From Bacteroidales bacterium (lineage in GTDB: Bacteria > Bacteroidota > Bacteroidia > Bacteroidales > JAGONC01), in NCBI GenBank assembly GCA_023133655.1, contig JAGLWB010000388.1, positions 1-49,091 of the forward strand: a stretch of DNA of 49,091 nucleotides. Direction: 5' to 3'. The translations under genes and the position numbers were made by a program. Each line of letters opens with the position of its first letter. The first letter of the stretch is position 1. The notes beneath the pieces were generated by a model, which saw only the letters and a program-made list of their open reading frames with translations, made no database searches and was not told the DNA's origin. This document shows, in pieces, positions 498 to 48,170 of the stretch.

Positions 498-1652
498 TCA
501 ATACTTCATTGTGTCATTTTCAATATCAGCTTCATTCACTTTTTGTTTATTCAATGATTTCCAGGAGTACCAGATATATGCTACTACAAAAGGGACTAAT
601 AAAGAAACATAACTCATAGTAGTAAGCGTATATTTACTTGAGGAGGCATTATGAATGGTCAATGAACTTTGCAGATCAAAAGTTGATGGGTAAAAGGCCG
701 TATTATTAAGACCCGCCAGCATTAGAATTGAAAAGACCGTTAATACTGTTCCAGCTCCAGCAAACCAAATTCCTTTTGATGAAATTTTAAAAGCCCCAAG
801 AAAAATGCCGGATAATACCCCTACAACACCTGCCAACAAGAGGATCAACACTAATGGCATCTCTAAAAGATTATGCAGGTACTTGAATTTTTCCAGAAAT
901 ACCACCTTCGTATCAGGATCAACAGCAAATCCTTCTCGTGTCAATATCAAATCAATGAATAATAAAAAAAATCCAAGAAATGCAGCACTACATATTTTCA
1001 CTGTTTTAGCTGCACGTTGAATGATTTCGGAATGATCGATATTATTTATAAAATAGAGCATTGCCAAAACCCGGGCCAGGAAAAACACGGCCAGCCCGAG
1101 TGATAAATTAGTAATGTTAAATGCTGCTTCAAGCCCATGGGTGGCTGTTTCCCAGCGAGAAATAACCGGATCAGATACATTTGTGATATTCATTTTATCA
1201 ACAGAGAATTCTGAACCGGTGAAAAAGGTTCCCACAGCTACACCTATTAAAATGGTGCTTAATAAACCGTTGATAAACAGAAAAGTATCATACGTTTTAC
1301 GGCCCAGGAAATTGTTTGCTTTTGTGCGATACTCATAAGAAACAGCCTGAATTATAAAACTAAATAATATAAGCATCCACACCCAGTATGCACCCCCAAA
1401 GCTGGTTGAATAAAACAAAGGAAATGAAGCAAAAAAAGCTCCTCCGAAAGTCACAAGGGTTGTAAAAGTCAGGTCCCATTTTCGCCCGATGGAGTTAATT
1501 AATAAAGAACGTTCTTTATCGTTTTTAGCTAATTGCCTTATTAATGTTTGCCCACCTTGAACAAACATTAAAAAAATCAGAAGGGCAGCCAATAATGATA
1601 CGATAATCCACCAATAAGCTTGTAAAACCGGATAAGATAAATTACTAAACAT
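498..1652 (-). CDS. cydB: Cytochrome bd ubiquinol oxidase subunit II
   Basis: Multi-TM protein with GRKWDLTFTTLVTFGGAFFASFPLFY and SSLTIHNASSS motifs; overlaps the end of cydA. Confidence 0.95.
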   Translation of the reverse strand: MFSNLSYPVLQAYWWIIVSLLAALLIFLMFVQGGQTLIRQLAKNDKERSLLINSIGRKWDLTFTTLVTFGGAFFASFPLFYSTSFGGAYWVWMLILFSFIIQAVSYEYRTKANNFLGRKTYDTFLFINGLLSTILIGVAVGTFFTGSEFSVDKMNITNVSDPVISRWETATHGLEAAFNITNLSLGLAVFFLARVLAMLYFINNIDHSEIIQRAAKTVKICSAAFLGFFLLFIDLILTREGFAVDPDTKVVFLEKFKYLHNLLEMPLVLILLLAGVVGVLSGIFLGAFKISSKGIWFAGAGTVLTVFSILMLAGLNNTAFYPSTFDLQSSLTIHNASSSKYTLTTMSYVSLLVPFVVAYIWYSWKSLNKQKVNEADIENDTMKY

Positions 1653-30247: not shown

Positions 30248-30564
30248 TTAAATTAGTAATATGTTAATTCTTAGCTTATTATAATAGCTTATTTAAAAGG
30301 AAGCAATATTAATTAAAATATTTCGAATAAGAACAAGAAAAAAGTGTTTTTTTTGTTATGTTTATAGCAGTTGAATCCGGGTAAGCTTAACTTCACATCC
30401 AGGGTGTTTTAAGTATTGGATAATGAATATTTGTTGATGTTTAAAGAAATTCACATAGATTGATTGTCAATTATGGAAAATTTTGTAACTTTAAGCTTCA
30501 TATTAAAGATAATATATTCAACCCTGGATTGCTGTTTTTTATCAAATTTGCAGAAAAAAAGTAT

Positions 30565-33500: not shown

Positions 33501-34047
33501 TCAGGATTACAAAATCAACATGTCGGAGATCGATAAAAATCAAATATTACTTTATACTGAGAAGGGAATGGGAAACGGATTGATCAGTAACATTTGCGAT
33601 ATAGTTTACATCGACCGGGAAAAATTTGATAAAAGTAAAACGATTGAAATGGCTGAGGAGATTGAAAAAATAAATCAGGATTTTTTCAAAAAGAAAAAGC
33701 AATATATACTGATAGGGCCAGGCAGATGGGGCACCCGCGACAGATGGATTGGGATACCAGTAAAATGGCCCCAAATCTCTCAAGCCAAAATAATTGTAGA
33801 AACCAGCCTGGAGGGATATCCACTAGATGCATCTTCAGGATCACACTTTTTCCATAACCTCACTTCTATGAATGTAGGTTATTTCTCTATTCAGAACGAA
33901 ACCCCAGGCGCTTATATTAACTGGGAAATTCTCGAAAAACAAAAAGATGTAAAAGTAAACGGGTTCTTTAAACATATCCGGTTTGATTCGCCTTTATCTA
34001 TTAAAATGGATGGGAAAAAGCGGATAGCGGTGATAGCATTAGGGTAG
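30565..34047 (+). CDS. GAF-like + receiver domains + PEP/pyruvate-binding (PPDK_N ATP-grasp) multidomain protein, paralog 1
   Basis: N-terminal ERLKELSC..AWQYPE..EGPFLKEER GAF-like unit; REC (LLVED..LITD..LQSS..FIDK); GGKGRG, AVRSSGLFED..FAG, VEIEFA, LLQIKP; C-terminal SSGSHFFHN. Likely ATG at 30565. Confidence 0.85.
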   Translation: MKKKGPEEKKKSENNAISPELYQYLLAERLKELSCINQTSQILREGKSIEESLQQISEIIPKAWQYPEFTVARITFRGMEFTSPNFKETPWFLSYPFATIDNQEGRLEVYYLKEFPSSDEGPFLKEERDLINNLAGIITGYLNSVKGKTLIKKTITDKSVLEKFSPIAGKSKYSRQLLQSFLNKSNQNRDIYHDLMPFKVKEILLVASLYDAYTIEKEGKFSEHVLEDYQQLNLTSIPRITGVSTPEEAMEELRKKHFDLVIIMVGVDKKAPLGLSCKVKNEFPYIPIFLLLNNNSDIAFYNKQGKKTKHIAKIFIWNGESKMFFAMIKHVEDKINAENDTKIGLVRIILLVEDSAIYYSRYLPLLYSVVMDQTKRIMDDVSTDDLYKVLKLRARPKILLATTFEEALSIINHFKEYMLCLITDMKFEKEGRLDENAGVSLITNIRKKFPRLPIILQSSETTNERIAHEQKVTFIDKNSETLSQDFKSFITHYLGFGNFVYKNSKGKQIAIARSLDEFEKHLRTIPDDSILYHARRDHFSLWLMARGEIQAAKVLHPRRTSDFKNAPNIREYLISVINKFRDEKDRGMVIPFKATSLLDEKNIVSLMPGSLGGKGRGVTFINNLIYNFDFSAHVPNINIKAPITAVIGTEEFEYFLQRNKLYDTILNHQNYEEIKRLFIKGNLTQTLISKLKVVLKNITKPIAVRSSGLFEDSMMQPFAGIFETFLLPNNHPDFNVRLEHLTNAIKMVFVSVYSPISRSYIEAVHYKIEEEKMAVVIQEVVGNQFGNTYYPHISGAAQSYNFYPFSHMKPEEGFAVIALGLGKYVVEGEKAFRFSPKYPNAVIDSPKDQFRNSQVNFFAVDMNKKNIDLLEGDTAGLIRLDIDDAEMHGTMIHSASVYDIDNNRITPGLSVPGPRILNFADILKYNYVPLAKTIEIVLDVVKEALGSPVEIEFAVDLKKDSNYKASFYLLQIKPLIGSAQDYKINMSEIDKNQILLYTEKGMGNGLISNICDIVYIDREKFDKSKTIEMAEEIEKINQDFFKKKKQYILIGPGRWGTRDRWIGIPVKWPQISQAKIIVETSLEGYPLDASSGSHFFHNLTSMNVGYFSIQNETPGAYINWEILEKQKDVKVNGFFKHIRFDSPLSIKMDGKKRIAVIALG

Positions 34048-34075: not shown

Positions 34076-35476
34076 TCATAACCACACTCCGGTATTCAAA
34101 TACTCGTGAATCCCCCGTGCTGCCACTTTCCCAGCCCCCATAGCCAAAATGACCGTTGCAGCTCCTGTAGCAACATCTCCGCCGGCAAAAACACCCTTTT
34201 TGGATGTTTTACCTGTTTGAGGATCTGTTTTAATCGTTCCCCATTTCGTAACTTCAATATCTTTTGTTGTTGAGGAAATCAAAGGATTGGGGCTGTTACC
34301 AATAGCAATGATGACCACATCGACAGGAATCTTAAAATTGGCTCCTTCAATTGGAACAGGCCTTCTTCTTCCGGAATCATCAGGTTCGCCCAATTTCATC
34401 TTGATGCATTCTGCTTCTTTAACCCAACCGTTTTCATTACCGATGTAAGCCGCGGGGTTTGACAAGAGGTTAAATATAACGCCTTCTTGTTCAGCATGAT
34501 GGATCTCTTCCTCTCTGGCAGGCATTTGTTCCCGGGCCCTGCGGTAAATCAATATCGACTCTTCAGCACCCAGCCGCAATGCTGTCCGGGCACAATCCAT
34601 TGCAACATTGCCTCCTCCAACCGTAGCAACTCTTTTTCTTCGAATGATCGGAGTTTTATACTTGGGAAAAAGATAGGCTTTCATCAAATTGGCACGTGTA
34701 AGGTACTCATTTGCCGAATAGACACCATTGAGGTTCTCTCCGGGTATTTTCATGAACCATGGAAGTCCTGCTCCAGTCCCAAGGAAAACAGCATCGAACT
34801 CATCAAGTAACTCATCAATGCTTTTAATCATCCCGATAACATAATCTGTAAATATCTTAACACCAAGCTGCTTAAGAAAGTCTATTTCCTTGAATACGAT
34901 ATTCTTGGGCAATCTGAACTCAGGAATTCCATAAACAAGAACACCGCCTGGTTCATGAAGGGCTTCATAAATAACAACACCATGGCCCATTTTAGCCAAA
35001 TCAGCTGCAGCCGTGATACCAGCAGGGCCGGCACCTACTATAGCAATCTTTTTACCGGTGGAAGGAGGTAAAGAAGGTATTTGAATATCATCCTGGTCAC
35101 GCTCCCAGTCAGCCAGAAACCGCTCCAGCCTGCCAATGGCAATTGGTTCGTTTTTCTTTCCAACCACACATCTGATCTCACACTGCTCTTCCTGAGGGCA
35201 TACACGACCACAAATCGCCGGAAGAATATTCTTCTCCTTAAGCAGGTTAACCCCTTCCCTGAATTGATTCTGAGCAATAAAATTGATAAATCCCGGGATG
35301 TCAATCTCAACCGGACATCCTTGAACACACAAAGGTTTCTTGCACTGAAGACAGCGTTGGGCTTCCAGCACAGCCTCTTCAGAAGAATAGCCATAAGGAA
35401 CCTCGTTGAAGTTTCTGATACGTTCTTCAGGTGGCTGTTCCCTCATTGGGGTTTTCTTTGGACTTATCTTACCCAT
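34076..35476 (-). CDS. NfnB/SudA-like NADPH-dependent flavo-Fe-S oxidoreductase (GltD-like large subunit)
   Basis: RCLQCKKPLCVQGCP, CGRVCPQEEQCE, GAGPAG, YGIPEFRLP, GGGNVAMDCAR, YRR, GGDVATGAATVILAMGAG. Confidence 0.92.
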   Translation of the reverse strand: MGKISPKKTPMREQPPEERIRNFNEVPYGYSSEEAVLEAQRCLQCKKPLCVQGCPVEIDIPGFINFIAQNQFREGVNLLKEKNILPAICGRVCPQEEQCEIRCVVGKKNEPIAIGRLERFLADWERDQDDIQIPSLPPSTGKKIAIVGAGPAGITAAADLAKMGHGVVIYEALHEPGGVLVYGIPEFRLPKNIVFKEIDFLKQLGVKIFTDYVIGMIKSIDELLDEFDAVFLGTGAGLPWFMKIPGENLNGVYSANEYLTRANLMKAYLFPKYKTPIIRRKRVATVGGGNVAMDCARTALRLGAEESILIYRRAREQMPAREEEIHHAEQEGVIFNLLSNPAAYIGNENGWVKEAECIKMKLGEPDDSGRRRPVPIEGANFKIPVDVVIIAIGNSPNPLISSTTKDIEVTKWGTIKTDPQTGKTSKKGVFAGGDVATGAATVILAMGAGKVAARGIHEYLNTGVWL

Positions 35477-35480
35477 TTTA

Positions 35481-36290
35481 CTATCTTTCTTTCGATATGA
35501 TCTCTTCTTCCAAATATGCCTTGCGCCTGGTCAATACAACATCCCAATCTACCTCATGTCCATCAAAATGAGGACCATCAACACAAGCAAATTTTGTTAC
35601 CCCTCCTACTAAGAGCCTGCAAGCACCACACATACCTGTTCCGTCAATCATTACAGGATTCATACTAACAATAGTTTTAATTCCAAATGGCTTGGTAGCC
35701 TGGGATACCCTGTACATCATATAAGTACATCCAACAGCCATAATCCGGTCAAATCTTTCTCCAGATGCAAGATCATCCACCAAACGGTCATATGAATGTC
35801 CTTTCGTTCCCTGTGAACCATCTGTGGTAGAATACCGCACTTCATCAGAGGCTTCTTCAAGTTTTTTATTCCAGTATAATAAAAACTTACTCCTGGCCTC
35901 AGAATAACTCACAACTTTATTCCCTGCTTCTTTCAAAGCTCTGGCTGCCGGAAAGATGCCCCCGATACCATAACATCCCCCAACCAGGGCTACCGACCCA
36001 AACGCATTAATCTCAAAAGCCTTTCCAAGAGGTCCTGTAAAAGAATATATCTCATCTCCTTCACGCAATTCAGCAAGTCGCCGGGTTGCTGCTCCGATCT
36101 CCAGGAATATTATGGAAACAGTACCTTTGTCAGCATCCCAATCAGCAATCGTTATTGGGGTTCTTTCACTGTATTTATCCGGAATGACAATAACGAACTG
36201 GCCAGGAAGGGCTTTTCTGGCAATATCAGGCGCCATGACAACGAACTCATAGACATTTGGAACAATATGTCTCTTATTAATAATTTTCAT
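35481..36290 (-). CDS. NfnA/SudB-like FAD/[2Fe-2S] subunit (atypical NAD-binding motifs)
   Basis: PGQFVI, ERTPITIAD, GPLG, MIDGTGMCGACR...ACVDGP. Confidence 0.9.
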   Translation of the reverse strand: MKIINKRHIVPNVYEFVVMAPDIARKALPGQFVIVIPDKYSERTPITIADWDADKGTVSIIFLEIGAATRRLAELREGDEIYSFTGPLGKAFEINAFGSVALVGGCYGIGGIFPAARALKEAGNKVVSYSEARSKFLLYWNKKLEEASDEVRYSTTDGSQGTKGHSYDRLVDDLASGERFDRIMAVGCTYMMYRVSQATKPFGIKTIVSMNPVMIDGTGMCGACRLLVGGVTKFACVDGPHFDGHEVDWDVVLTRRKAYLEEEIISKER

Positions 36291-38887
36291 CAGTCAACAT
36301 CTTCAATTTTTGCATTGACAACACATCTTTCAGGGCTTAAGCCATCTGAGAATAAAGGAAGATCATCCCATGTTGGTTTAATGTAAGCTGCTTTACCATT
36401 GAGCCCAGACATTATCTTAACTTTAAAAACTTTTTTCCCAAATGTTGTGATTAACCTGACTTTTTCTCCATCCCGGGCTGTTAAATCCCTTAGTAACTTC
36501 TCAGAAACAAAAAGCACACTCTCTTCCCGTATTGCCTTCATGTCAGGAATCAGGGCAGATAATAAATTTCCCATGTAGTGAAAATGGTTTGGTTCAATGA
36601 TAACCTGGACAGGAAATTTATTGGATTTTCTGTGCTCTGTTCGGTTAACACTCATGAGCCTTTTGCTCTCAAATTCCGCAGTTGAAAAAGACAAATCAAT
36701 AACCGATTTTATTTCTGATAATATCATGTTCGCCCTTTTATATCCAAAGCCGTCTTGCCGCATTCCTTCTGCAATTTCTTGCATCGTTGCCCATGCAGGC
36801 CTGGCAAGCCCGGGCGGTTTAATCACAGGGGTAAATTTTTTCAACGATCGTTCAACATCAATAATGTGTCCTTCTGTTTCAGTAAAACTGCAAAGAGGTA
36901 ATACAATGTTTGCATAGTCAGACGTCTGGCTGAGAAACATGTTTTGCTGGACCATAAATTCCAGGTCGGCCAGGTTTTTGTGAGGCGGCATATCACCCAT
37001 TACAAACAGAGCCCTGATGCCGTCATTTGAAATATTCTTAATCATTTCATTGGCTGAAAGGCCTTTCTGATGAGGCAATTTTGTATTCCACAAACCAGCC
37101 CATTTATTATGATCTACTCTGTTGTGGACTCTGGCAAACCCGGCAAAATAATCAGGGTGGATGCCAACAAGTGTCCCACCGTACCTGTTTCCTTCATCTA
37201 ATAAAAATAATACACGGTTGTTTTCCAAACCACCAAGCAGGCGAGAAATATTGATTAAAAGATTAAAACTATTTTCGCTTTCCGGGCTTCTTAATATCCA
37301 TTCTCCAACAATGATATTGATTTTTCTGCTTTTGACCAGTGTACGAGCGAACTGTTCTATTTCTTCCATTCTGAACCCACCTATGCGTTCCAGCTTCCTT
37401 TGATTTGAATTCTCAAGAAGTTCCCGTACACTATCAGGCAATCTCTTTTTTAAAACGACACTTATATATGCCATCAGCATTGAAAGAAATGAATATTCCT
37501 TTCCCGGGTTGAAATTCACAAACAGATTCGAAAAGTCTGCTGTTCGGTTGTTGTGGGTGTGGGCAACCACGACCTGCTTTCCATTTTTATACGCTTTTCT
37601 GATCCTGTTCTCAACGATCGGGTGAGACGAGTAAGCCTGAGAACCAATTACAAATATGGTATCGGCACTTTCTATCTTGTTGAGCCCGATTGGAGGGAAA
37701 GCATTATAATACTCGTGAATCTTTTTCAATAAATTTTTACCGGGATATGAAAACAAAAGATCCACATTATTGGATTTCATGACCTTTCGGGTAAACTTTT
37801 GAAGGATGTAATTATTCTCAATCGAATCCTGTGCGGAGCCAATCATTCCAAACTGGCTTCCCTTGTATTTTTCGAGATTCCTTGCAATATACCGAATAGC
37901 ATCATCCCATGCTATTTCTACCCACCTGTTCTCTTTTTTAAGGAGAGGTTTATTAATCCTGTCGGGATGGTGAACAATGTCACCCGGAACAAATTTACCT
38001 CTGACGCATAGCTGAAGCGGCGCTGTTCTTTTACCAGGCTCAGGCCCAACATTAATGATTCTGTTACCTTTGGAATTTACATTCATTTTACATCCAACCG
38101 GGCATAAAACACAGGTTGTTATTGTTGAATTATCAGGACAACCAACCCAGCTCCCCATTTTTTCAGCTATCGATCCTGTCGGGCATACATCCACGCAAGC
38201 TCCGCAATATTCACATCCGGCATCTTTTTGTGACTCAAGAAAAGCAGTACCGACGAGGGTTGCATTTCCACGCTGAACAAAGGCCAGCACTCCACTGTTC
38301 CGTTCCTCGTTACAGATTCTCACACACCTGCCACATAAAACACACAGGTTATAATCAAGTTCATAAAAAGGATTGTCTTTTACCGGTTCTAATCCCCTGT
38401 AAGCAATTGGGAACCTGACATCCTTAAGTTCAAGGTATTCGACCAGATCCTGCAACTCACAATCTCCGTTTCTTGTACAAAAATTACATCCAGTGGTAAC
38501 GCCTACCTTTCTTGTACTATGCATATACTCTGAGCAATCATTTTTATCCTTGCAAATAAGACAAGTAAAGGTATGCTCAGAAAGGATAAGCTCAAGGATA
38601 TCTCTTCTGAGTATTTGAAGATCTGCTGTTTTTGTAATTATTTCCATTCCCTGACATACAGGCGTAGTACAGGCAGTTTGGTAGCCTTTTGAATTTTTTA
38701 TCTCAACCATACATAGGCGACACCCTCCATAATGTGGAAGGTTATCAAGATAGCAAAGTGTGGGGATATAAATCCCGGCTTTCCTGGCAGCTTCCAGTAT
38801 AGTTATACCTTCGGACACCATCATGGATTTGCCATCGATGGTAATCGATATTTTTTTGATTTTTTTCTTTTCAATAACTTCAGTCAT
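36290..38887 (-). CDS. NuoG/FdhA-like Fe-S subunit with molybdopterin-oxidoreductase fold lacking the Mo/W ligand
   Basis: [2Fe-2S] IPTLC..CRLC..TAC; His-ligated HxxxCxxCx5C; 2x[4Fe-4S]; TCVLCPVGC..LCVRG. NNVDLLFSYP stands where FDHs have NNVDxxARx(C/U)H. Confidence 0.85.
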   Translation of the reverse strand: MTEVIEKKKIKKISITIDGKSMMVSEGITILEAARKAGIYIPTLCYLDNLPHYGGCRLCMVEIKNSKGYQTACTTPVCQGMEIITKTADLQILRRDILELILSEHTFTCLICKDKNDCSEYMHSTRKVGVTTGCNFCTRNGDCELQDLVEYLELKDVRFPIAYRGLEPVKDNPFYELDYNLCVLCGRCVRICNEERNSGVLAFVQRGNATLVGTAFLESQKDAGCEYCGACVDVCPTGSIAEKMGSWVGCPDNSTITTCVLCPVGCKMNVNSKGNRIINVGPEPGKRTAPLQLCVRGKFVPGDIVHHPDRINKPLLKKENRWVEIAWDDAIRYIARNLEKYKGSQFGMIGSAQDSIENNYILQKFTRKVMKSNNVDLLFSYPGKNLLKKIHEYYNAFPPIGLNKIESADTIFVIGSQAYSSHPIVENRIRKAYKNGKQVVVAHTHNNRTADFSNLFVNFNPGKEYSFLSMLMAYISVVLKKRLPDSVRELLENSNQRKLERIGGFRMEEIEQFARTLVKSRKINIIVGEWILRSPESENSFNLLINISRLLGGLENNRVLFLLDEGNRYGGTLVGIHPDYFAGFARVHNRVDHNKWAGLWNTKLPHQKGLSANEMIKNISNDGIRALFVMGDMPPHKNLADLEFMVQQNMFLSQTSDYANIVLPLCSFTETEGHIIDVERSLKKFTPVIKPPGLARPAWATMQEIAEGMRQDGFGYKRANMILSEIKSVIDLSFSTAEFESKRLMSVNRTEHRKSNKFPVQVIIEPNHFHYMGNLLSALIPDMKAIREESVLFVSEKLLRDLTARDGEKVRLITTFGKKVFKVKIMSGLNGKAAYIKPTWDDLPLFSDGLSPERCVVNAKIEDVD

Positions 38888-38895
38888 CCTATATT

Positions 38896-40761
38896 CTATT
38901 CTATTACAATAGCATCACCTGCAATGGCATCAAACCGGCAGACCTCGTAACATGCCCTGCATTTGATACATTTCTCCGGATCAAGGTTATGAGGTTCACT
39001 ACGCGGCCCGGTAATAGCGCCTGTTGGGCACACCTCAACACACCGCTGACAACCCGTACATTTTTCTTTAATAACCCTGTATTCCACAAGGTCACGGCAA
39101 ACGGCAGCCGGACAGCGGTGGTCAATTATATGAGCCTCGTACTCATTCCTGAAATATTTTAAAGTAGTCAACACAGGGTTTGGGGCCGTTTGTCCAAGCC
39201 CGCATAACGAACCCATATTGATGGTGCCGGCCAGATTCTCAAGAATCTCAATATCTTCCATGACCCCTTTTCCTTCTGTGATCTTATTCAGGATCTCAAC
39301 CATTTTTCTTGTACCGATACGGCATGGAGTACACTTGCCACAGCTTTCCTGGCTTGTGAACCTAAGAAAATATTTAGCCACATCGACCATACAGGAATGT
39401 TCATCCATAACGATAAGGCCACCCGAACCCATGATAGACCCGGCAGAAGCCAGTGATTCATAATCAATGGGTAGGTCAAGGTAATCTTTCGACAGGCACC
39501 CACCTGAAGGACCGCCTGTTTGCACAGCCTTGAAAGGTTTATACGTTCCTCCTCCGATATCAAATATAATCTCTCTGAGCGTTGTTCCAAGTGGAACCTC
39601 AATCAATCCGGTTCTTCTGACTTTCCCAACCAGGGCAAAGGTCTTGGTTCCCTTGCTTTTTTCTGTTCCATAACCGGCATACCATTCCCCACCCTTTCGA
39701 AGAATATTGGGAATAGTACCAAGTGTTTCAACATTATTGATGGTTGTTGGTTTTCCATGTAGGCCGGAAATCGCTGGAAAGGGAGGCCGTGTTCGGGGCA
39801 TTCCCCGATGGCCTTCTATCGACGCTATCAAAGCCGTTTCCTCTCCACAGACAAAAGCCCCTGCGCCTTCTTTCAATTTTATATCAAAATCAAATCCACT
39901 GTTTAAAATATCCTTACCCAAAAAGCCGGAGTTCTTCATTTGGTCAATCGCCTTGATCAAACGCTCAATTGCCAATGGATATTCAGCCCGAATATAAATA
40001 TACCCAAAGGTTGCACCAATAGCAAAAGCAGCGATCAGCATCCCTTCCAACAAAGCAAATGGATCTCCTTCAATCAACGACCTGTTCATAAAAGCTCCGG
40101 GATCACCTTCGTCTGCATTGCAAATCAGGTATTTGGGGCTACCTTTTGCCTTCCGGCAAAATTGCCATTTTCTAAAAACAGGGAACCCTGCTCCACCCCT
40201 GCCCCTTAACCCGGAAACCTTTAACTCATCTATAATACCTGCTGCACCCATATTAAGTGCATTAATCAAGCCCTGAAATCCGTCTCTTGCTATATAATGC
40301 ATTATATTTTCCGGATCGATGATACCACAGTTGCGCAGAACAATACGCTTCTGATTTTTTAGCATGGGGAGGTCCCAAAAAGATTCTGTACCGTTAATTT
40401 TTCCCTCCGGCGCACCCAGGTGCCCCAGTGGTTTAAGTTTCGCCCCTCCGGTAAACAAATAGTCATCCAGGAGTTTTTCTGCACGTTCAGCATCAACATT
40501 GTTGAAAATAAACCGTGGGGATCCGGGAAGCTGGATGTCGAGGAAAGGCTCCAGGTAACAAGGACCGATACATCCAACTTTTATCAGGTCTACCTTCCTT
40601 TTCGATTTTAACAAGGCTTTCTGTACGCTGTTCCATACCGCCCCTGCTCCGGAAGCTAATCCGCAACTTCCCATGCCAATATAAATAACGGGATGTTGGC
40701 TATGCTGAAGCGCCTGCCATTCCTCTGTTGCCCTTTTTTGTATAGCGAGTATATCACTCAT
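38896..40761 (-). CDS. NuoF/HydB-like FMN/NADH-binding subunit with C-terminal 2x[4Fe-4S]
   Basis: SGLRGRGGAGFP, CNADEGDPGAFMNR, GAFVCGEETAL, GGPSGG, ESCGKCTPCR, SLCGLG, C-terminal CTGCQRC/CIKCRAC. Confidence 0.93.
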   Translation of the reverse strand: MSDILAIQKRATEEWQALQHSQHPVIYIGMGSCGLASGAGAVWNSVQKALLKSKRKVDLIKVGCIGPCYLEPFLDIQLPGSPRFIFNNVDAERAEKLLDDYLFTGGAKLKPLGHLGAPEGKINGTESFWDLPMLKNQKRIVLRNCGIIDPENIMHYIARDGFQGLINALNMGAAGIIDELKVSGLRGRGGAGFPVFRKWQFCRKAKGSPKYLICNADEGDPGAFMNRSLIEGDPFALLEGMLIAAFAIGATFGYIYIRAEYPLAIERLIKAIDQMKNSGFLGKDILNSGFDFDIKLKEGAGAFVCGEETALIASIEGHRGMPRTRPPFPAISGLHGKPTTINNVETLGTIPNILRKGGEWYAGYGTEKSKGTKTFALVGKVRRTGLIEVPLGTTLREIIFDIGGGTYKPFKAVQTGGPSGGCLSKDYLDLPIDYESLASAGSIMGSGGLIVMDEHSCMVDVAKYFLRFTSQESCGKCTPCRIGTRKMVEILNKITEGKGVMEDIEILENLAGTINMGSLCGLGQTAPNPVLTTLKYFRNEYEAHIIDHRCPAAVCRDLVEYRVIKEKCTGCQRCVEVCPTGAITGPRSEPHNLDPEKCIKCRACYEVCRFDAIAGDAIVIE

Positions 40762-41206
40762 ATTTCTTCAACACCTCTCTGATCTTAATCACAGACATCC
40801 GGCTGTGAATATCATTATTAACCATCATTACCGGGGCCAGCGCACAACATCCCAGGCATGCAACACGTGTCAGATCAAACCTTTTATCTTCGGTGGTTTG
40901 CCCAGGTTCAATACCAATTTCAAGCTGCAAGGCATTCAATAAAAAATCGCCACCCTGAACATGACAGGCTGTTCCAAGACATATCTTGATTGAATTTCTC
41001 CCTGGTGGATTGAAGCGAAACTGAGAATAAAAGGATGTAACACCAAATATAGTGCTGCGCGAAACGCGCAGGTAGCTTGAAATCTTTTCAATTGCCTCCT
41101 TTGATATGTAACCATAAAGACCCTGTGTCTGTTGAAGAACAGGTATCAGGCTCCCCTCATCGTTTTGGGGATATTTGCTAAGTAGGTTATTGAGGGAATC
41201 AGCCAT
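40754..41206 (-). CDS. NuoE/HydC-like [2Fe-2S] subunit
   Basis: GVTSFYSQF, ICLGTACHVQG, ACLGCCALAPV. Confidence 0.93.
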   Translation of the reverse strand: MADSLNNLLSKYPQNDEGSLIPVLQQTQGLYGYISKEAIEKISSYLRVSRSTIFGVTSFYSQFRFNPPGRNSIKICLGTACHVQGGDFLLNALQLEIGIEPGQTTEDKRFDLTRVACLGCCALAPVMMVNNDIHSRMSVIKIREVLKKYE

Positions 41207-41355
41207 AAAACAACCATTAATTTGATTAAACGGCCTTTGGAAAAATTAATTCCAAATGACAATGCTCAATAATACAATGAGATCCAAAAACAATTTCATA
41301 AAAATAAATAATAAAATTGTTTTCTGAAAATAATTATGCTTATTTATATTTTTTC

Positions 41356-41391
41356 CAGGCAAGGGACAGGTCGCAACCTGTCCCTTGCCTG
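41356..41391. repeat. Perfect 16-bp palindrome (REP-like) in the divergent promoter region
   Basis: CAGGCAAGGGACAGGT-CGCA-ACCTGTCCCTTGCCTG. Confidence 0.75.
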
Positions 41392-41542
41392 CTGCCATGA
41401 AACCATGGGCCCTCATTTATTTATACTGATTTTAAATATATATGATTCCTGGAAATATTGGATATTTTATCAGAAAAAATATCTAAAATTGTACCCCATT
41501 TTGAAAGGTTCAATTTGATTGTCATTAAAACACTAAAATAAC

Positions 41543-42397
41543 ATGGAAGATGTACTGCATGATTTTATATCATTTAACCTGAAATGCTCCATTTGCGGAC
41601 ATTCCCTGATGGATGAGGATCAACTTGTAGATGGTAGGCCGGGTGTTAAATTGGGTATTAAAACATCTAAGGGAGAAGGAACAATTATTTTAAGCTCCAT
41701 TTACGAAAGTTTTAATTTCCGATGTGATGTGGAAATGGATGAAGATGAAATAGTAGAATTCTCCTGCCCTCACTGTTCAAAGAAATTCGAAGGTTGTTTA
41801 GAATGTGATCACTGCGAGGCACCTATGGTTAAATTAGATCTCGACATTGGTGGTACCGTTTGTATTTGTACCCGAAAAGGTTGTAAACGACATTTCCTTG
41901 AGTTCGATGATTTTAACGCTGCCTTATACAAACTGACCTATCTGGGGGAATACAAAGAGGCGGTACCTGAAGGGATCAGAGAAACAGGAGAATCCAAAGA
42001 AATCATCGACTCCGGAACCTTTCTCCATCTTTATTGTCCCGTATGTGATAAATCACTGATCGATAAAGGCCTTGTCAAACTAAAAGTTATCAATGATACA
42101 GGAGAAAGCGGCCATGTATTCCTTAGCCCTTACCTGAATGTATTTACATCAAGATCTACTGTATTCCTTAAAGAAGATCAGGTAGTTAATGACATACAAT
42201 GCTTTCACTGTGAAACCAGTCTGATTAACAAAGGAAAGAAATGCGAAGAGTGTGGATCGCCAGCAGCTAAGGTTGCGATAGCGGCAAGAACGAAATTGAT
42301 TGACTTTTATATTTGTTCAAAAAAAGGCTGCCGCTGGCATGGGCTTTGTAACGATGATCTTCACGATATCGAACTTGAAGACAGTTTGGAATGGTGA
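41543..42397 (+). CDS. Hypothetical protein with two tandem Cys-rich (CxxC x3 + Cx4CxxH) domains
   Basis: Domain 1: CSIC..LSSIY..CPHC..CDHC..CTRKGCKRH. Domain 2: CPVC..LSPYL..CFHC..CEEC..CSKKGCRWH. Confidence 0.85.
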   Translation: MEDVLHDFISFNLKCSICGHSLMDEDQLVDGRPGVKLGIKTSKGEGTIILSSIYESFNFRCDVEMDEDEIVEFSCPHCSKKFEGCLECDHCEAPMVKLDLDIGGTVCICTRKGCKRHFLEFDDFNAALYKLTYLGEYKEAVPEGIRETGESKEIIDSGTFLHLYCPVCDKSLIDKGLVKLKVINDTGESGHVFLSPYLNVFTSRSTVFLKEDQVVNDIQCFHCETSLINKGKKCEECGSPAAKVAIAARTKLIDFYICSKKGCRWHGLCNDDLHDIELEDSLEW

Positions 42398-42446
42398 TCA
42401 ATAACACCAGTTAAAAAATACATTATATCAATTTTATAATAACGCG

Positions 42447-43271
42447 ATGTTTCAGATAAAAAGAAAACAATCTATGGCGAAAGAAACGATCATTCGTTTT
42501 GACATTGAAGCACCTAAGATTGCCCTAAAAATAAAACCCGGACAGTTTGTGATCATCAGAGTCAATGAAACAGGTGAAAGGATCCCATTAACTGTTGCCG
42601 ATAAAGATGCCTTTGAAGGCACCATAACCATAATCTTCCAGGTTGTTGGTAAAACAACAGCACTGATGCGGTCATTGAATGAAGGAGACTTCCTCCTGGA
42701 TGTTGTCGGACCATTAGGAAAAGCTGCTGAGATTGAAAATATAGGAACGGTAATAATGGTAGGTGGCGGCACAGGGGTTGCTATCCTGTATCATGTTACT
42801 AAAGCCTTTAAAGACGCAGGTAATCATGTGATAGTGATCATGGGTGCCAAGGAGAAAGAAATGCTGATCCTGGAAAACGAAATGAAAGCTATTTGTGATG
42901 AACTGGTCGTTACAACTGATGATGGTAGCTATGGTGAAAAAGGATTCGTTACCATGCCATTGGAAAGATATTTGAACGAACGTGATGATATTAAGATGAT
43001 CTATACCATTGGGCCAATCATAATGATGAAAAATATATGCAACCTGACAAAGCCGTATAATGTCCCAACGATGGTTTCTCTTAATCCTATTATGATTGAC
43101 GGAACAGGAATGTGTGGCGGATGCAGAGTAAAAATAGGTGGCAAAACTAAATTCAGTTGCGTTGACGGACCTGATTTCGATGGCCATGAGGTTGATTTTG
43201 ATGAATTGATGAGTAGAAATTCCCAATATCTTCAGGATGAAAAAGATTCACTCCTGTATTCAATAAAATAG
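42447..43271 (+). CDS. NfnA/SudB-like FAD/[2Fe-2S] NAD-binding subunit (canonical)
   Basis: PGQFVI, GERIPLTVAD, VGGGTGVA, IGPIIMM, MIDGTGMCGGCR..CVDGPDFDGH. Confidence 0.92.
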   Translation: MFQIKRKQSMAKETIIRFDIEAPKIALKIKPGQFVIIRVNETGERIPLTVADKDAFEGTITIIFQVVGKTTALMRSLNEGDFLLDVVGPLGKAAEIENIGTVIMVGGGTGVAILYHVTKAFKDAGNHVIVIMGAKEKEMLILENEMKAICDELVVTTDDGSYGEKGFVTMPLERYLNERDDIKMIYTIGPIIMMKNICNLTKPYNVPTMVSLNPIMIDGTGMCGGCRVKIGGKTKFSCVDGPDFDGHEVDFDELMSRNSQYLQDEKDSLLYSIK

Positions 43272-43286
43272 ACAAAGGGTAAAGAA

Positions 43287-45071
43287 ATGTTAGAACAGGA
43301 AGTAAGATTATTAAAGTATAAAACCTATCTAAGTTATTATTGTCCGCATTGTAGCACAACTTTTAATGTTGAACGGCAAGACGAAAAGTCCCTGATCTTT
43401 AATGCTGCATACAAACAACAGGACCTTGTTGTGAAACTTAGTCCTTACCTTGATGTTTTTGACACCAAAACTTCCATCCCGGTCGAGGAAGGTGATATGC
43501 TTGACGACCTGATTTGTCCGCACTGCAAAAAAAGCCTGATTAACCATGAAGAAAAATGTGAGAAGTGTGGTTCTAAAGTGGGCGAAGTCATTGTATCAAC
43601 ACAAGCAAAATTAATTCCGTTCTATTTCTGCGTCAACCGAGGGTGCGACTGGCATGGGATTAAAAAAGCCGATCAAAAAACCATCAGACGGAAGATCCCG
43701 CGCCAGACTATGCCGGAGCAGGATCCGAAAATCAGGGCTCACAACTTCAAAGAAGTTCCTTACGGTTATACATCTGAGTTGGCCCTGTTAGAAGCCGACA
43801 GATGTCTGCAGTGTAAAAACCCGAAATGTGTCGAGGGATGTCCGGTAAACATCGATATTCCGGGCTTCATTAAACTTATTTCTGAAGAACAATTTGATGC
43901 AGCTGCCCGGAAAATTAAAGAAACAAACCTTTTCCCGGCAGTATGCGGAAGGGTATGCCCCCAGGAAAGTCAATGCGAAATTAAATGTATAGTCGGCATC
44001 AAAAATGAACCCGTTGCCATTGGCAGACTTGAACGTTTTGTTGCTGATTATGAGAGGGATATGAACCTGGTTGAAATAGTTGATATCAAAAAAAGTACCG
44101 GAAAAAAAATCGCTGTTATCGGATCAGGACCGGGAGGCCTTACCGTAGCTGCCGATATGCAAATATTAGGCTATGACGTGACTATCTTTGAGGCGCTGCA
44201 CGAAGCCGGAGGTGTTCTCACTTATGGTATCCCTGAATTCAGATTGCCCAAATCCATTGTCAATTTTGAAATAGACTATCTTGTTAAATTAGGCGTTAAA
44301 ATCGAATTAAATCATATCATCGGAAATATTCTGACCCTGGATGAATTACTCGAACATTTTGATGCAATATATATCGGCGTTGGCGCCGGGCTTCCATGGT
44401 TCATGGGCCTTGAAGGGGAAAGCCTCGGCAATGTTTATTCGGCCAATGAGTACCTTACACGTATGAACCTGATGAAGGCTTATAAATTTCCTGAATATGA
44501 CACACCTATGCCTAAAGGGAATAAAGTGGCTGTGATTGGTGGTGGAAATGTGGCTATGGACTGCGCAAGATCAGCCCTCAGATCTGGTTCCAAAGAGGTA
44601 AATATCGTTTATAGAAGATCAAAAAAAGAATTACCGGCCAGAGAGGAAGAGGTTCACCATGCAGAGCAGGAAGGGATTAACTTTCATCTGCTGACCAGCC
44701 CTATCCGATATTTTGGAGATAGAAGAAACATGGTAAAATCCATGGAATGTATACGGATGGAGCTTGGCGAACCTGATGCTTCGGGTAGAAGAAGGCCTTT
44801 ACCATTAGAAAATTCTAACTTTATGCTCGAATGTGACATGGCTATTGTGGCCATTGGAAACGGGCCAAACCCTATCCTCTTCAATTCAGCACCCGATCTG
44901 AAATTGAATAAAAGAGGTTATGTTGAAGTCAACGAGGAAACCGGTGAAACATCAAAAGAGTTTGTTTATGCCGGAGGTGATATTGTGACTGGAGCCGCAA
45001 CCGTAATCCTGGCCATGGGTGCAGGAAGAATAGCCGCCCGGGCCATGCACGAAAAGCTTTCTAAAATTTAA
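43287..45071 (+). CDS. NfnB/SudA-like NADPH oxidoreductase fused to an N-terminal Cys-rich domain
   Basis: Residues ~15-125: CPHC..LSPYL..CPHC..CEKC..CVNRGCDWH. Then a GltD-like body (RCLQC, CGRVCPQE, GSGPGG, GGGNVAMD, YRR, GAATVILAMGAG). Confidence 0.9.
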   Translation: MLEQEVRLLKYKTYLSYYCPHCSTTFNVERQDEKSLIFNAAYKQQDLVVKLSPYLDVFDTKTSIPVEEGDMLDDLICPHCKKSLINHEEKCEKCGSKVGEVIVSTQAKLIPFYFCVNRGCDWHGIKKADQKTIRRKIPRQTMPEQDPKIRAHNFKEVPYGYTSELALLEADRCLQCKNPKCVEGCPVNIDIPGFIKLISEEQFDAAARKIKETNLFPAVCGRVCPQESQCEIKCIVGIKNEPVAIGRLERFVADYERDMNLVEIVDIKKSTGKKIAVIGSGPGGLTVAADMQILGYDVTIFEALHEAGGVLTYGIPEFRLPKSIVNFEIDYLVKLGVKIELNHIIGNILTLDELLEHFDAIYIGVGAGLPWFMGLEGESLGNVYSANEYLTRMNLMKAYKFPEYDTPMPKGNKVAVIGGGNVAMDCARSALRSGSKEVNIVYRRSKKELPAREEEVHHAEQEGINFHLLTSPIRYFGDRRNMVKSMECIRMELGEPDASGRRRPLPLENSNFMLECDMAIVAIGNGPNPILFNSAPDLKLNKRGYVEVNEETGETSKEFVYAGGDIVTGAATVILAMGAGRIAARAMHEKLSKI

Positions 45072-45200: not shown

Positions 45201-48170
45201 ATGGCTCTTCATCCCCTGAAATTAAACTTAAAGAAGTACTATTTCGACGATACTTCATTCATCAACCTGATGAAAAAGCGTATTTATCATGTGCTTCTAA
45301 TCTCTAGTGCCTATGATGCTTTTATCCTTGAGGATGACGGAAGAGTTGATGAACAGATCTTCAATGAATATGTTTCCCTGAACCTGAGATACCCTCCACA
45401 GTTCATTATTACCGATTCGGAAGAAGAAGCTTTTAAAATTCTTGAAGAAATTCATATCGACCTTATCATTACTATGCGTAGCGCTGCCGAGGCCAATACA
45501 TTTGAGATTGCAGGGCGCCTGAAAAGCAAATACCCGGATACCCCCATCGTAATTTTGACCCCTTTCTCACGGGAAGCAACGATAAAAGTTGACAATGAAG
45601 ACCTGAGCGCCATTGACTACATATTTAGCTGGCTGGGTAATCCTGACATCCTACTGGCTATTATTAAGCTTATTGAAGATAGGATGAATGTAGAACAAGA
45701 TGTAAGCGAGGTTGGTGTACAAACAATTATCCTGGTGGAAGATTCAATACGTTTTTATTCAAGTTACCTTCCTAATATTTATAAAATTATCTTCAAACAG
45801 TCAAAGGCTTTTATGACGGAGGGGCTGAATGAACACCAGCAAATGCTGAGAATGCGTGGACGGCCGAAGATCTTACTGGCTACAACATATGAAGAAGCCA
45901 TATCCTTGTATGAGACTTATAAAAAAAACCTCCTCGGTATCATCACTGATGTGAGTTATATACGAAACGGGGTAATGGACAAAGAAGCAGGCATCAGGTT
46001 ATGTAAAAAAGTTAAGGCCGATGATCCTTATATGCCCCTTTTACTTCAATCATCAGAGGCTGAGAATGAAAAAATCGCTAAAAAAATAGAAGTCGGATTT
46101 ATCAATAAAACATCGAAAACACTTTCTATTGAACTTCGTAAGTTTATTATCGACTTTTTTGCTTTTGGAGATTTTATTTTCCTGGATCCTGACACAATGC
46201 AAGAGATTAACAGGGCACCAGATTTGAAATCTCTTCAAATGAAAATGTTTGAGATCCCCGACGATTCACTCCTGTACCACATTACCAGGAATCATTTCTC
46301 CAAATGGCTCCGTGCCCGGGCCCTTTTCCCGCTGGCCGACCTGTTCAGGGATCTTCGGATGGGAGATTTTGATAATGACCTTTTTGCTGTCAGAAGATTC
46401 GTTTTTGATGCCATGGCTAATTTTAGGATCAGTAAAGCAAGGGGTATTATCGCTGAATTCAGCAAAGAACGGTTTGATGATTACCTCAGTTTTACCCGGA
46501 TTGGCGACGGGTCAATCGGAGGAAAAGCACGCGGGTTGGCTTTCATCGATAACCTGATCAAAAAATACCATATCCTTGATAAATACGATGATGTTATTGT
46601 AACCATCCCAAAAACTGTTGTTTTATGCACTGATATTTTCGATGAGTTCATGGAAGAAAACAACTTATATAAAATTGCTCTTTCCGATTTAAGCGATGAA
46701 GATATCTTACAACATTTTGTTAAAGCAAGGTTGCCATTCCGTATCCATGAAGATCTCTATACGCTGATAAGCTATGTCAGAAAACCATTGGCTATCAGAT
46801 CCTCCAGTCTCCTGGAAGATTCTCATTATCAACCATTTGCCGGCATCTATTCAACATATATGATCCCCTACATTGAAAATGATGAGCGGTTAATGAACCA
46901 AATATTAAGCGATGCCATTAAATGTGTATATGCTTCTGCCTTCTTTAAAAACAGCAAAGCCTATATGGCTGCCACCTCTAATTTGATCGATGAGGAAAAA
47001 ATGGCCATCGTTATTCAAACAGTTTGTGGACAAAACTATAATGGCAAGTATTATCCAACCATCTCCGGAGTTGCCCGGTCAATTAACTTTTATCCAATTG
47101 AACCCGAAAAACCTGAAGATGGAATAGTCAATTTAGCTCTTGGATTGGGAAAACATATTGTTGACGGCGGAATGACATTGAGGTTTTCACCTAAATATTC
47201 TTCAAAAATACTACAGCTTTCAACACCTGAAATGGCCCTCAAAGAAACGCAGAAAGTATTTTACGCCCTTGACCAATTATCTGGTGGCTTTACTCCAAAT
47301 ACAGATGACAATTACAATATCATTAAATATAAAATCAAAGAGGCAGAAAAAGATCTACCCTTTAAACATGTGGCTTCCACTTATGATTTTGAAAATAACT
47401 TAGTGAGAGATGGGATCCATTATAAAGGGAAAAAGTTGATCACATTCTCAAATATATTAAACCATAATGTGTTCCCACTTGCAGAGATCATCGGAATGGC
47501 CCTGGAGATTGGCCAAAAAGAGATGAATAAACCAGTTGAGATTGAATTTGCCGTGGATATGGGAGTTTCAAAAGACGAACCAATTATTTTCAACCTGCTC
47601 CAAATAAGGCCTATTGTTGATATAAAGGAAACCATTGATGAGAACCTGGAGGATATTCCGGTTGATGAAACGATTATTTATTCGAATTCTGCCCTGGGTA
47701 ATGGAGTGATAAATGACATTTGTGACCTTGTCTATGTTAAGCCTGAAACTTTCAGTGCTGACAGGAACCCTGAGATTGCCAGAAAAATTGGAGAAATCAA
47801 TGAGCAGTTTATCAGAGAAAATAAAAATTACATCCTTATCGGGCCGGGGCGTTGGGGCTCATTGGATCCATGGCTGGGCATACCTGTAAAGTGGCCTCAG
47901 ATCTCCTCAGCAAGGGTCATTATTGAATCAGGGCTTGAAAACTACCGCATTGACCCAAGCCAGGGTACGCACTTTTTTCAAAACCTTACATCGTTCAGGG
48001 TGGGCTATTTCACCATTAATCCGTACATAAATGACGGATTTTACGACCTCGGCTATCTCTCCTCTTTTTCTCCATATTATGAAGATGAAAACATCAGGCA
48101 TATCCGGTTTGAAAAGCCGCTGACTGTGATGATTGATGGGCAGAAGAATATCGGGGTGATCATGAAATAA
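45201..48170 (+). CDS. Receiver domains + PEP/pyruvate-binding (PPDK_N ATP-grasp) multidomain protein, paralog 2
   Basis: REC (ILVED..IITD..LQSS..FINK); GGKARG, AIRSSSLLED..FAG, VEIEFA, LLQIRP; C-terminal GPGRWGS..SQGTHFFQN. Confidence 0.88.
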   Translation: MALHPLKLNLKKYYFDDTSFINLMKKRIYHVLLISSAYDAFILEDDGRVDEQIFNEYVSLNLRYPPQFIITDSEEEAFKILEEIHIDLIITMRSAAEANTFEIAGRLKSKYPDTPIVILTPFSREATIKVDNEDLSAIDYIFSWLGNPDILLAIIKLIEDRMNVEQDVSEVGVQTIILVEDSIRFYSSYLPNIYKIIFKQSKAFMTEGLNEHQQMLRMRGRPKILLATTYEEAISLYETYKKNLLGIITDVSYIRNGVMDKEAGIRLCKKVKADDPYMPLLLQSSEAENEKIAKKIEVGFINKTSKTLSIELRKFIIDFFAFGDFIFLDPDTMQEINRAPDLKSLQMKMFEIPDDSLLYHITRNHFSKWLRARALFPLADLFRDLRMGDFDNDLFAVRRFVFDAMANFRISKARGIIAEFSKERFDDYLSFTRIGDGSIGGKARGLAFIDNLIKKYHILDKYDDVIVTIPKTVVLCTDIFDEFMEENNLYKIALSDLSDEDILQHFVKARLPFRIHEDLYTLISYVRKPLAIRSSSLLEDSHYQPFAGIYSTYMIPYIENDERLMNQILSDAIKCVYASAFFKNSKAYMAATSNLIDEEKMAIVIQTVCGQNYNGKYYPTISGVARSINFYPIEPEKPEDGIVNLALGLGKHIVDGGMTLRFSPKYSSKILQLSTPEMALKETQKVFYALDQLSGGFTPNTDDNYNIIKYKIKEAEKDLPFKHVASTYDFENNLVRDGIHYKGKKLITFSNILNHNVFPLAEIIGMALEIGQKEMNKPVEIEFAVDMGVSKDEPIIFNLLQIRPIVDIKETIDENLEDIPVDETIIYSNSALGNGVINDICDLVYVKPETFSADRNPEIARKIGEINEQFIRENKNYILIGPGRWGSLDPWLGIPVKWPQISSARVIIESGLENYRIDPSQGTHFFQNLTSFRVGYFTINPYINDGFYDLGYLSSFSPYYEDENIRHIRFEKPLTVMIDGQKNIGVIMK

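Follow-up and report, generated by a model that had tools for sequence, protein, structure and literature searches.

A zinc-ribbon-type domain family with two four-cysteine sites and a distinctive tie to bifurcating enzymes

A cysteine-rich domain of about 115 residues occurs three times in a 49,091-nucleotide stretch of Bacteroidales DNA. The stretch, which we call the window, is contig JAGLWB010000388.1 of assembly GCA_023133655.1, analysed over its whole length and numbered from its first letter. Two copies lie in ZnR2, a stand-alone protein, and the third opens an NfnB-like subunit encoded just beyond an NfnA-like gene. An earlier note on this DNA, made from the sequence alone, had placed two copies in 41543-42397 and one at the N-terminus of 43287-45071; open reading frames (ORFs), alignment and BLASTP confirmed this arrangement. 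The three genes and their parts, all on the plus strand, are as follows.

41543..42397, plus strand: ZnR2, a 284-aa stand-alone protein in which a variable linker joins a D1-type to a D2-type domain, followed by an acidic C-terminal tail (ORF)
41570..41908, plus strand: copy 1, D1-type, residues about 10-122, with C15/C18, C75/C78, C88/C91, C109/C114 and H117 (E 3.9e-52, three-copy profile)
41919..42016, plus strand: ZnR2 interdomain linker, residues about 126-158, where a helix (124-136) leads into a low-confidence stretch of variable length (alignment indels, AlphaFold2)
42020..42352, plus strand: copy 2, D2-type, residues about 160-270, with C165/C168, C220/C223, C234/C237, C258/C263 and H266 (E 8.7e-67, three-copy profile)
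42368..42394, plus strand: acidic C-terminal tail of ZnR2 with a final Trp, residues about 276-284 (conservation in 28 orthologues)
42447..43271, plus strand: NfnA/NfnS-like FAD/NAD-binding subunit with a [2Fe-2S] motif, between ZnR2 and NfnB (Pfam, NF004862)
43287..45071, plus strand: NfnB/NfnL (GltD-like) subunit, 594 aa, with the third copy at its N-terminus (Pfam, TIGR01316)
43326..43661, plus strand: copy 3, D3-type, residues about 14-125, with C19/C22, C77/C80, C91/C94, C115/C120 and H123 (E 1.0e-65, three-copy profile)

The two genes that follow ZnR2 encode predicted subunits of an Nfn-type enzyme. The product of 42447-43271 carries the Pfam domains FAD_binding_6, NAD_binding_1 and DHODB_Fe-S_bind and scores 401.1 bits for NF004862 against a cut-off of 220, which by sequence assigns it to the NfnA/NfnS family. 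In the 594-aa protein, Fer4_20 spans residues 150-260 (E 3.4e-44) and Pyr_redox_2 residues 274-580 (E 3e-29); its TIGR01316 score of 576.1 bits, over a cut-off of 471.75, classifies it as NfnB/NfnL, with Nfn activity predicted. A second NfnB-like protein of the window (466 aa, 34076-35476) can be aligned to the first only from about residue 136 of that longer protein and gave no match in a whole-genome search with the domain profile. The earlier note was right that this other NfnB lacks the domain.

As judged by alignment, the three copies resemble one another far beyond chance. We compared the first 138 residues of the 594-aa protein with the two halves of ZnR2; BLASTP aligned copy 2 with copy 3 at E 3e-29 (35% identity) and copy 1 with copy 2 at E 1e-11 (30% identity). 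Invariant in the three-way alignment, in copy-1 numbering, are C15, C18, C75, C78, C88, C91, C109, C114 and H117. The spacing reads CxxC-(~31)-LS[SP]x-(~21)-CxxC-(9)-CxxC-(17-20)-Cx4CxxH, and we call the four cysteine pairs, in this order, knuckles K1 to K4. Neither the ferredoxin pattern CxxCxxCxxxC nor the heme pattern CxxCH is present in the three copies, as had been noted before, and no Fer4 family matches the domain.

The domain belongs to a family that reaches well beyond this locus. A profile of 20 domain units, run against 1.84 billion representative sequences, matched 487 representatives at E<=1e-3 and 227 at E<=1e-10; counts of lengths, copies and architectures rest on 150 listed proteins among the 487. 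Of these, 94 do not exceed 160 aa and 18 contain the domain twice. The eight cysteines are 95-100% conserved in 142 near-complete domains, 107 of which have all eight together with the trailing histidine. That histidine is 82% conserved and gives way to R, N, Q, Y, S and others in about 18% of the domains, so it is not an essential ligand. The earlier note had also written a histidine into the second knuckle ('CxHC'). Its cysteine spacing stands, but this histidine, found in only 61% of the 142 domains and variable among ZnR2 orthologues, is not a feature of the family.

Covariation most likely divides the eight cysteines into two sequential Cys4 sites, K1+K2 and K3+K4. Mean-field direct coupling analysis (DCA) of 613 unique domain sequences (effective number 341) found its strongest knuckle-flank coupling between positions 91 and 112 (z 7.3), linking K3 with K4, and its second between positions 16 and 77 (z 5.9), linking K1 with K2. 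The remaining knuckle combinations reached z 3.4 at most, with a maximum of 2.3 for K2 and K3. Losses of knuckles match these couplings and also argue for sequential pairing: P0296, an NfnB-fused relative, has lost K3 and K4 together and retained K1 and K2, and distant half-domain proteins of the same genome as the window retain K1 and K2 only. A nested pairing like that of methionyl-tRNA synthetase (MetRS), K1+K4 and K2+K3, was rejected on the DCA result. The two Cys4 sites thus define a genuine module that is both ancient and mobile. A full-text search limited to an open-access library found no description of it, and we define it as a new zinc-ribbon-type domain family that has a distinctive tie to bifurcating enzymes and no entry in the family libraries searched.

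ZnR2 is conserved as the opening gene of Nfn operons among Bacteroidota and Ignavibacteria. Its orthologues comprise 293 clusters at E<=0.001 among 833 candidates. Across 28 aligned sequences all 16 cysteines, H117 and H266 are invariant while the linker varies in length; in the tail, L278, S281 and E283 are invariant and E279, D280 and W284 are at least 90% conserved. The copy-3 ligands C19/C22, C77/C80, C91/C94, C115/C120 and H123 are likewise invariant, in 31 sequences. A search with the N-terminal part of the 594-aa protein matched 51 clusters, every one of which has the Fer4_20 and Pyr_redox_2 architecture.

Gene order couples ZnR2 to NfnA and a domain-bearing NfnB. We scanned one genome per species, obtained 282 ZnR2 relatives and used the best 80 of them, at 77 loci; the listed neighbourhood records are all metagenome-assembled genomes, titled Bacteroidota, Ignavibacteria, Chlorobiota or 'uncultured bacterium'. 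Among the 68 copies with at least 2.6 kb downstream, 53 are followed by NfnA and then the domain-bearing NfnB, 5 by NuoE, NuoF and (Fer2+GltD) genes, 6 by a convergent NfnB of the domain-less kind and 4 by other genes. NfnA is also next in 7 of the 12 copies with less than 2.6 kb downstream. In 15 further metagenome loci ZnR2 adjoins NfnA/NfnB genes, 14 times with a D3-bearing NfnB frame, and in a set of 41 related genomes ZnR2 and the domain-bearing NfnB occur together in the window's own genome and 7 others and singly in none. Where ZnR2 directly precedes an unfused NuoE, it is the sole carrier of the domain in five of five assemblies, the completeness of which is not given. Obligate partnering of ZnR2 with a second domain-bearing subunit was rejected on this count, and homotypic docking, which the earlier note had suggested, fails as a general mechanism for the same reason.

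Fusions tie the domain to the same classes of subunit. Of the 150 listed representatives, 41 that exceed one domain in length were scanned against Pfam; two-domain proteins like ZnR2, and a few proteins of 161-185 aa, were set aside. A NuoE-type [2Fe-2S] domain (PF01257) is the partner in 12 of the 41, one of them also with a receiver; Fer4_20 (NfnB) and CBS pairs are each the partner in four, and adenylate cyclase with AAA_16 and a Mur ligase in one each. A word-based search for longer proteins with ZnR2 returned no fused forms, and the fusions emerged only by region and profile searches. The NuoE-like partners were anticipated by the earlier note, and one such fusion occurs in the window's own genome. 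Through these fusions and the ZnR2-NfnA-NfnB synteny, association with redox enzymes elsewhere is strong.

Separate profiles for the D1, D2 and D3 positions resolve two subtypes. All 12 NuoE fusions and all 4 CBS fusions are D1-type and all 4 NfnB fusions D3-type, and the single-domain proteins comprise 59 of D1-type and 18 of D2/D3-type. An acidic tail with a final aromatic residue is found in 7 of 13 D2-type singles and in 0 of 59 D1-type singles. By their profile scores, then, D1 stands alone or C-terminally on NuoE-like proteins, and D2/D3 stands N-terminally on NfnB or free with an acidic Trp tail. The window's genome has two further carriers, a NuoE-like protein with a C-terminal domain (L082) and a 134-aa single-domain protein (L081). 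The NuoE fusion is encoded on contig C311 (L082:1405-2674, minus strand; relatives L147 and L148) and is followed by a NuoF-like gene. The genes after the NuoE fusion encode a NuoF+GltD fusion (1076 aa in the relatives), an Fer2_4 protein and a GltB-like FMN protein. Upstream is a 102-aa ORF with two CxxC-x5-C-x12-C motifs and no Pfam match; the same motif is found at the end of the NuoE fusion.

Structure prediction yields a folded domain with distant neighbours only. The AlphaFold2 model of ZnR2, built from a 28-sequence alignment, has a mean predicted local distance difference test score (pLDDT) of 81.9 and a predicted template modelling score (pTM) of 0.71, with two confident all-beta domains, a helix at 124-136, and pLDDT below 50 for linker residues 135-150 and the C-terminal tail. 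In the model of the full NfnB-like protein (mean pLDDT 70.4, pTM 0.52) copy 3 is folded, with 10-residue block means of 64-90 over residues 11-130. Foldseek found no match in the PDB at E<=0.001; its top rows were topoisomerase I at E 6e-3 to 1e-2. Three alignments, run as profiles against PDB sequences, had no significant match, the topoisomerase I ribbon scoring E 0.34 and the formate dehydrogenase accessory protein FdhE only E 2.2. A strong match to an unrelated characterised family, a possibility raised in the earlier note, appeared in neither the profile nor the Foldseek checks, and we treat the fold matches as leads, not assignments. Pfam and NCBIfam returned sub-threshold zinc-ribbon matches for ZnR2 and one marginal match to PF09334. 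PF12773, PF07191, PF13248 and PF01396 scored 15.8-19.8 bits, below cut-offs of 25-27.3, which by these scores leaves ZnR2 outside the generic and double zinc ribbon families, with a resemblance in kind.

A role in binding nucleic acids is highly improbable. The domain would then be a zinc-ribbon regulator of its operon or a relic of MetRS. Its weak best fold and sequence neighbours, topoisomerase I ribbons and the C-terminal domains of RIG-I-like receptors, do bind nucleic acids, and public records name members 'class I tRNA ligase family protein', 'methionyl-tRNA synthetase' or 'RNA-binding Zn-ribbon protein'. The acidity of ZnR2 (pI 4.96) speaks against a nucleic-acid binder, and fusion to enzyme subunits is unsuited to a DNA-binding regulator. 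As for MetRS, PF09334 (tRNA-synt_1g) reaches 21.2 bits on ZnR2 against a cut-off of 20.1, but no single stretch passes alone and the match is confined to profile positions 109-197 of 391. Comparison by hhalign with the genome's own MetRS, a normal one in a 690-aa frame, gave 64% probability over 46 columns, a single ribbon. With no match over the catalytic core and no strong coupling at the MetRS-type K2+K3 site, ZnR2 does not appear to be a synthetase family member, and the relic version is close to refuted. The MetRS-type labels of members, and their automatic Atlas cluster names, go back to the marginal PF09334 match; these names, like 'topoisomerase 1 Zn-ribbon' and 'HypA/HybF' among public records and Atlas clusters, rest on marginal zinc-ribbon matches and should not be propagated. 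Defining the family corrects the tRNA-synthetase labels in public records.

We tentatively favor a role as a structural-zinc accessory or docking module of bifurcating flavoenzymes in anaerobic bacteria. The domain would be an all-beta unit of about 115 aa whose two sequential Cys4 sites hold structural zinc, and ZnR2 combines D1, a flexible linker, D2 and an acidic, Trp-ended tail. The module would be non-catalytic and would serve NAD(P)H-linked iron-sulfur flavoenzymes of the NfnSL and NuoEF/Bfu types, provided in cis by the NfnB and NuoE fusions or in trans by ZnR2. It may sit at the ferredoxin-handling end of these enzymes, holding or gating partners instead of carrying electrons. The cis/trans pattern itself, with the domain either fused to NuoE or NfnB or supplied as free ZnR2 beside unfused partners, argues for an accessory subunit.

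That the domain is instead a redox centre is unlikely. Its Cys4 sites, four of them in ZnR2, would bind iron as in rubredoxin, and it would act as a built-in or dedicated electron carrier that exchanges electrons, in either direction, with the iron-sulfur chain of NfnB and NuoE/NuoF-type modules. Four cysteines per site in CxxC-type knuckles suit such a carrier, as do the acidity of ZnR2, which many small carriers share, and the fusions, which put the domain beside cluster-bearing parts: ahead of Fer4_20 in NfnB and behind the [2Fe-2S] domain in NuoE. Where GltD-like modules have additions at the N-terminus, these commonly serve as redox wires; the Fer2+GltD and NuoF+GltD fusions are examples. 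Rubredoxin-like proteins are found in hydrogenase gene clusters, FdhE binds iron, and a rubrerythrin gene adjoins the single-domain gene in two loci (L146 and L154). However, no rubredoxin family matched ZnR2, the NfnB-like protein or the single-domain protein at E<=0.01, and the knuckles read CPxC, CPxC, CxxC and Cx4C, with Gly below 60% after the second Cys of knuckles 1, 2 and 4. Rubredoxin potentials also lie far above the ferredoxin-level branch of bifurcation. We prefer structural zinc and docking to electron transfer because the rubredoxin signature and family match are absent, because no electron partner is evident in some of its settings (the ATPase domain of a kinase, CBS pairs, a cyclase-type protein), and because its weak structural neighbors all bind structural zinc.

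Next to ZnR2 in the window lies a divergent operon of related enzyme subunits, arranged alike in 12 related loci.

34076..41206, minus strand: divergent five-gene operon, NuoE/NuoF/NuoG-Fdh/NfnA/NfnB-like (ORFs, family profiles)
40754-41206, minus strand: NuoE-like gene
38896-40761, minus strand: NuoF-like gene
36290-38887, minus strand: NuoG/Fdh-like gene
35481-36290, minus strand: NfnA-like gene
34076-35476, minus strand: NfnB-like gene without the domain, 466 aa

The operon brings Bfu-type and NfnSL-type parts together and keeps 50-83% identity in related loci; its NuoG/formate-dehydrogenase-like product falls short of the cut-off of either family. The Nfn/Nuo block stands between two large PPDK_N (ATP-grasp type) proteins, at 30460-34047 and 45201-48170 (both plus strand); of the two, the downstream one, which follows NfnB, is alone in having a receiver domain by Pfam. 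For 22 of the 80 ZnR2 copies at related loci, a PPDK_N homologue is found upstream at a distance of at most 1.5 kb, and this protein may be a conserved regulator of Nfn/Nuo operons. Between the divergent NuoE and ZnR2 genes, a perfect inverted repeat with 15 bp arms and a 6-nt loop (41356-41391) forms a GC-rich island in an AT-rich spacer and has no second copy in the genome; in 11 relatives, no comparable stem of at least 9 bp was found between the genes. A Rex operator consensus matches the window 5 times, against 6.0 expected by chance, and never within 41207-41542. Near the start of the window, cytochrome bd oxidase subunits I and II are encoded at 498-3174 (minus strand), in a genome otherwise rich in anaerobic-type redox enzymes.

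The domain is found in a sensor-type protein as well. Among 300 other Bacteroidota genomes, sampled evenly, 19 had a match, 17 of these in frames of about 620-638 aa. The single one inspected (L086:196-2070, genome G097) encodes a sensor histidine kinase whose ATPase domain has a D1-type domain inserted after the N box and before the G1 box. The first knuckle of this copy is degenerate, and the N-terminal part of the kinase has heme-c-like CxxCH motifs. Kinase clusters are also among the structural neighbours of the domain in the Atlas.

Such settings raise a rival account, that of a regulatory switch or sensor, which we regard as rather doubtful. Zinc-thiolates or a beta-sheet pocket would sense oxidants, metal or a small ligand and alter the attached enzyme, kinase or CBS protein. 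Besides the kinase matches, the account draws on D1-type fusions with CBS pairs (four cases), with a receiver-NuoE fragment and with an adenylate cyclase-type protein (one case each), on the receiver-bearing PPDK_N neighbours, and on the RIG-I-like receptor C-terminal domains among the weak fold neighbours, which are ligand-binding domains. No ligand or pocket was identified, however, and the Rex operator consensus found no site in the promoter region. The strict operon linkage to NfnA/NfnB and the permanent fusion to enzyme subunits fit a constitutive subunit equally well.

Single-domain genes concentrate in clusters for hydrogenase maturation. The metagenome set comprised 80 loci, of which 54 had usable flanks and 39 were single-domain. 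Of the 39, 23 lie among the hyp maturation genes (hypA-F), 5 adjoin NuoEF or formate dehydrogenase genes and 14 have no neighbour from any tested class; when 48 genes adjoining 15 single-domain loci were scanned with Pfam, they proved to be mixed. Among the 117 ORFs of 11 regions fetched from other loci, 62 were scanned, from 7 regions; the other four regions matched scanned ones in gene sizes and order. The window's own genome (contig C426, L081:1152-1556), two relatives (L139, L142) and metagenome loci from the set L150-L229 have a D1-type single-domain gene in hyp clusters, located between hypA/hypB/rex and hypE-hypD-hypC-hypF on the opposite strand. The hyp-linked subfamily, 15 of 613 sequences, has two extra Cys and an Asp-His in the conserved core motif; it is a possible new hydrogenase accessory protein that may have a third metal site. 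In genome G338 a gene for the alpha subunit of formate dehydrogenase, interrupted by an in-frame stop (L144:6461-9178), is immediately preceded by a single-domain gene, with selB/selD before that and a NuoE-NuoF fusion downstream. The in-frame stop and the selB/selD neighbourhood make this formate dehydrogenase probably a selenocysteine enzyme.

Such settings suggest a maturation or assembly factor, though we consider this quite improbable for the family. Free forms would act transiently, as FdhE and HypA do, in inserting metal centres into hydrogenases, formate dehydrogenases and Nfn-type enzymes or in assembling their subunits. The hyp-cluster positions, the gene beside the formate dehydrogenase and the extra residues of the hyp-linked subfamily all agree with it. 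Covalent fusion to NfnB (51 of 51) and to NuoE (12) means that the domain stays in the mature enzyme, however, and ZnR2 is an ordinary-type D1+D2 protein that lacks the extra Cys (15 of 15 'SS'). The FdhE match, at the E value given above, counts against the idea as well.

Several observations weigh against the docking role that we favor. Of the 31 loci that extend at least 8 kb to either side, only 20 contain a NuoE-type gene. Copy 3 hangs on a low-confidence segment (residues 130-162, pLDDT below 50) in a model of low pTM, so nothing in the model places it near the NfnB clusters; that the NfnB N-terminus faces ferredoxin comes from published Nfn structures. The hyp-gene setting of the 23 single-domain loci fits an assembly role as well as a docking role. 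The D1-type domains of kinases and CBS proteins indicate that the module is not specific to bifurcating enzymes. The earlier note's reading survives in part. An unfamiliar domain that looks like a two-metal one, with eight near-invariant cysteines and no match to a curated family, holds, while the idea of a part dedicated to Nfn gives way before the CBS pairs, the kinase ATPase domain, the cyclase-type protein and the single-domain genes in hyp clusters.

Work on Bfu enzymes bears on where the domain may sit. In the cryo-EM account of a Bfu-type Nfn in PMC12018979, bifurcation is gated by movement of the NuoE-like C-terminal thioredoxin-like domain, next to which ferredoxin binds. A domain fused to the NuoE C-terminus would ride on that moving element, given the swing described there. 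We also entertain a more specific and distinctly unlikely scheme, in which D1 would pair with the mobile NuoE C-terminal domain and D2/D3 with the N-terminus of NfnB/GltD. By tethering in cis or in trans, ZnR2 would couple NuoEF(Bfu) to NfnSL or gate ferredoxin in both. If true, tethering by ZnR2 would join two bifurcating machineries into one regulated supercomplex.

The domain may offer a handle on how bifurcating enzymes assemble. Nfn and Bfu enzymes are being solved singly, and the domain may bear on how they bind and gate ferredoxin and on whether they form larger assemblies. Because it recurs at the mobile NuoE-like C-terminus and the NfnB N-terminus, the domain is a candidate extra subunit of these enzymes. 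ZnR2, its tail and the N-terminal domain of NfnB are concrete constructs for tests of assembly and gating, and the hyp-linked subfamily provides a candidate new hydrogenase accessory gene.

The domain shares features with several known zinc and Cys4 systems. K3 and K4 with their intervening hairpin weakly resemble topoisomerase I ribbons (PF01396) and double zinc ribbons (PF12773, PF07191), but the domain is a fixed unit of about 115 aa that reaches no curated cut-off and has a beta insert of about 55 residues between K1 and K2 and a conserved core motif of its own. The Zn-pinned beta domain at the C-terminus of the RIG-I-like receptors LGP2 and DRH-3 is another weak fold neighbour. The zinc knuckle of the MetRS connective peptide (PF09334) can be aligned with the CPxC-(9)-CxxC stretch, as one ribbon only, without the synthetase core and with covariation of K1+K2 and K3+K4 instead of K2+K3. 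Rubredoxin and FdhE-like accessory proteins are likewise small acidic proteins with CxxC-knuckle Cys4 sites, found beside oxidoreductase or maturation genes; the knuckle sequences of the domain differ from the rubredoxin signature, and no family match joins the two. A further parallel comes from Bfu-type enzymes, described in PMC12018979 and PMC10482914 as holding redox-inactive Zn in the Cys-rich B2/B5 sites of the NuoF-like subunit. Those sites, as described, lie inside the NuoF-like subunit, where they replace iron-sulfur clusters; they form no separate domain and are unrelated in sequence to the domain reported here. Yet they illustrate that active bifurcating enzymes do use structural zinc, as we propose for this domain.

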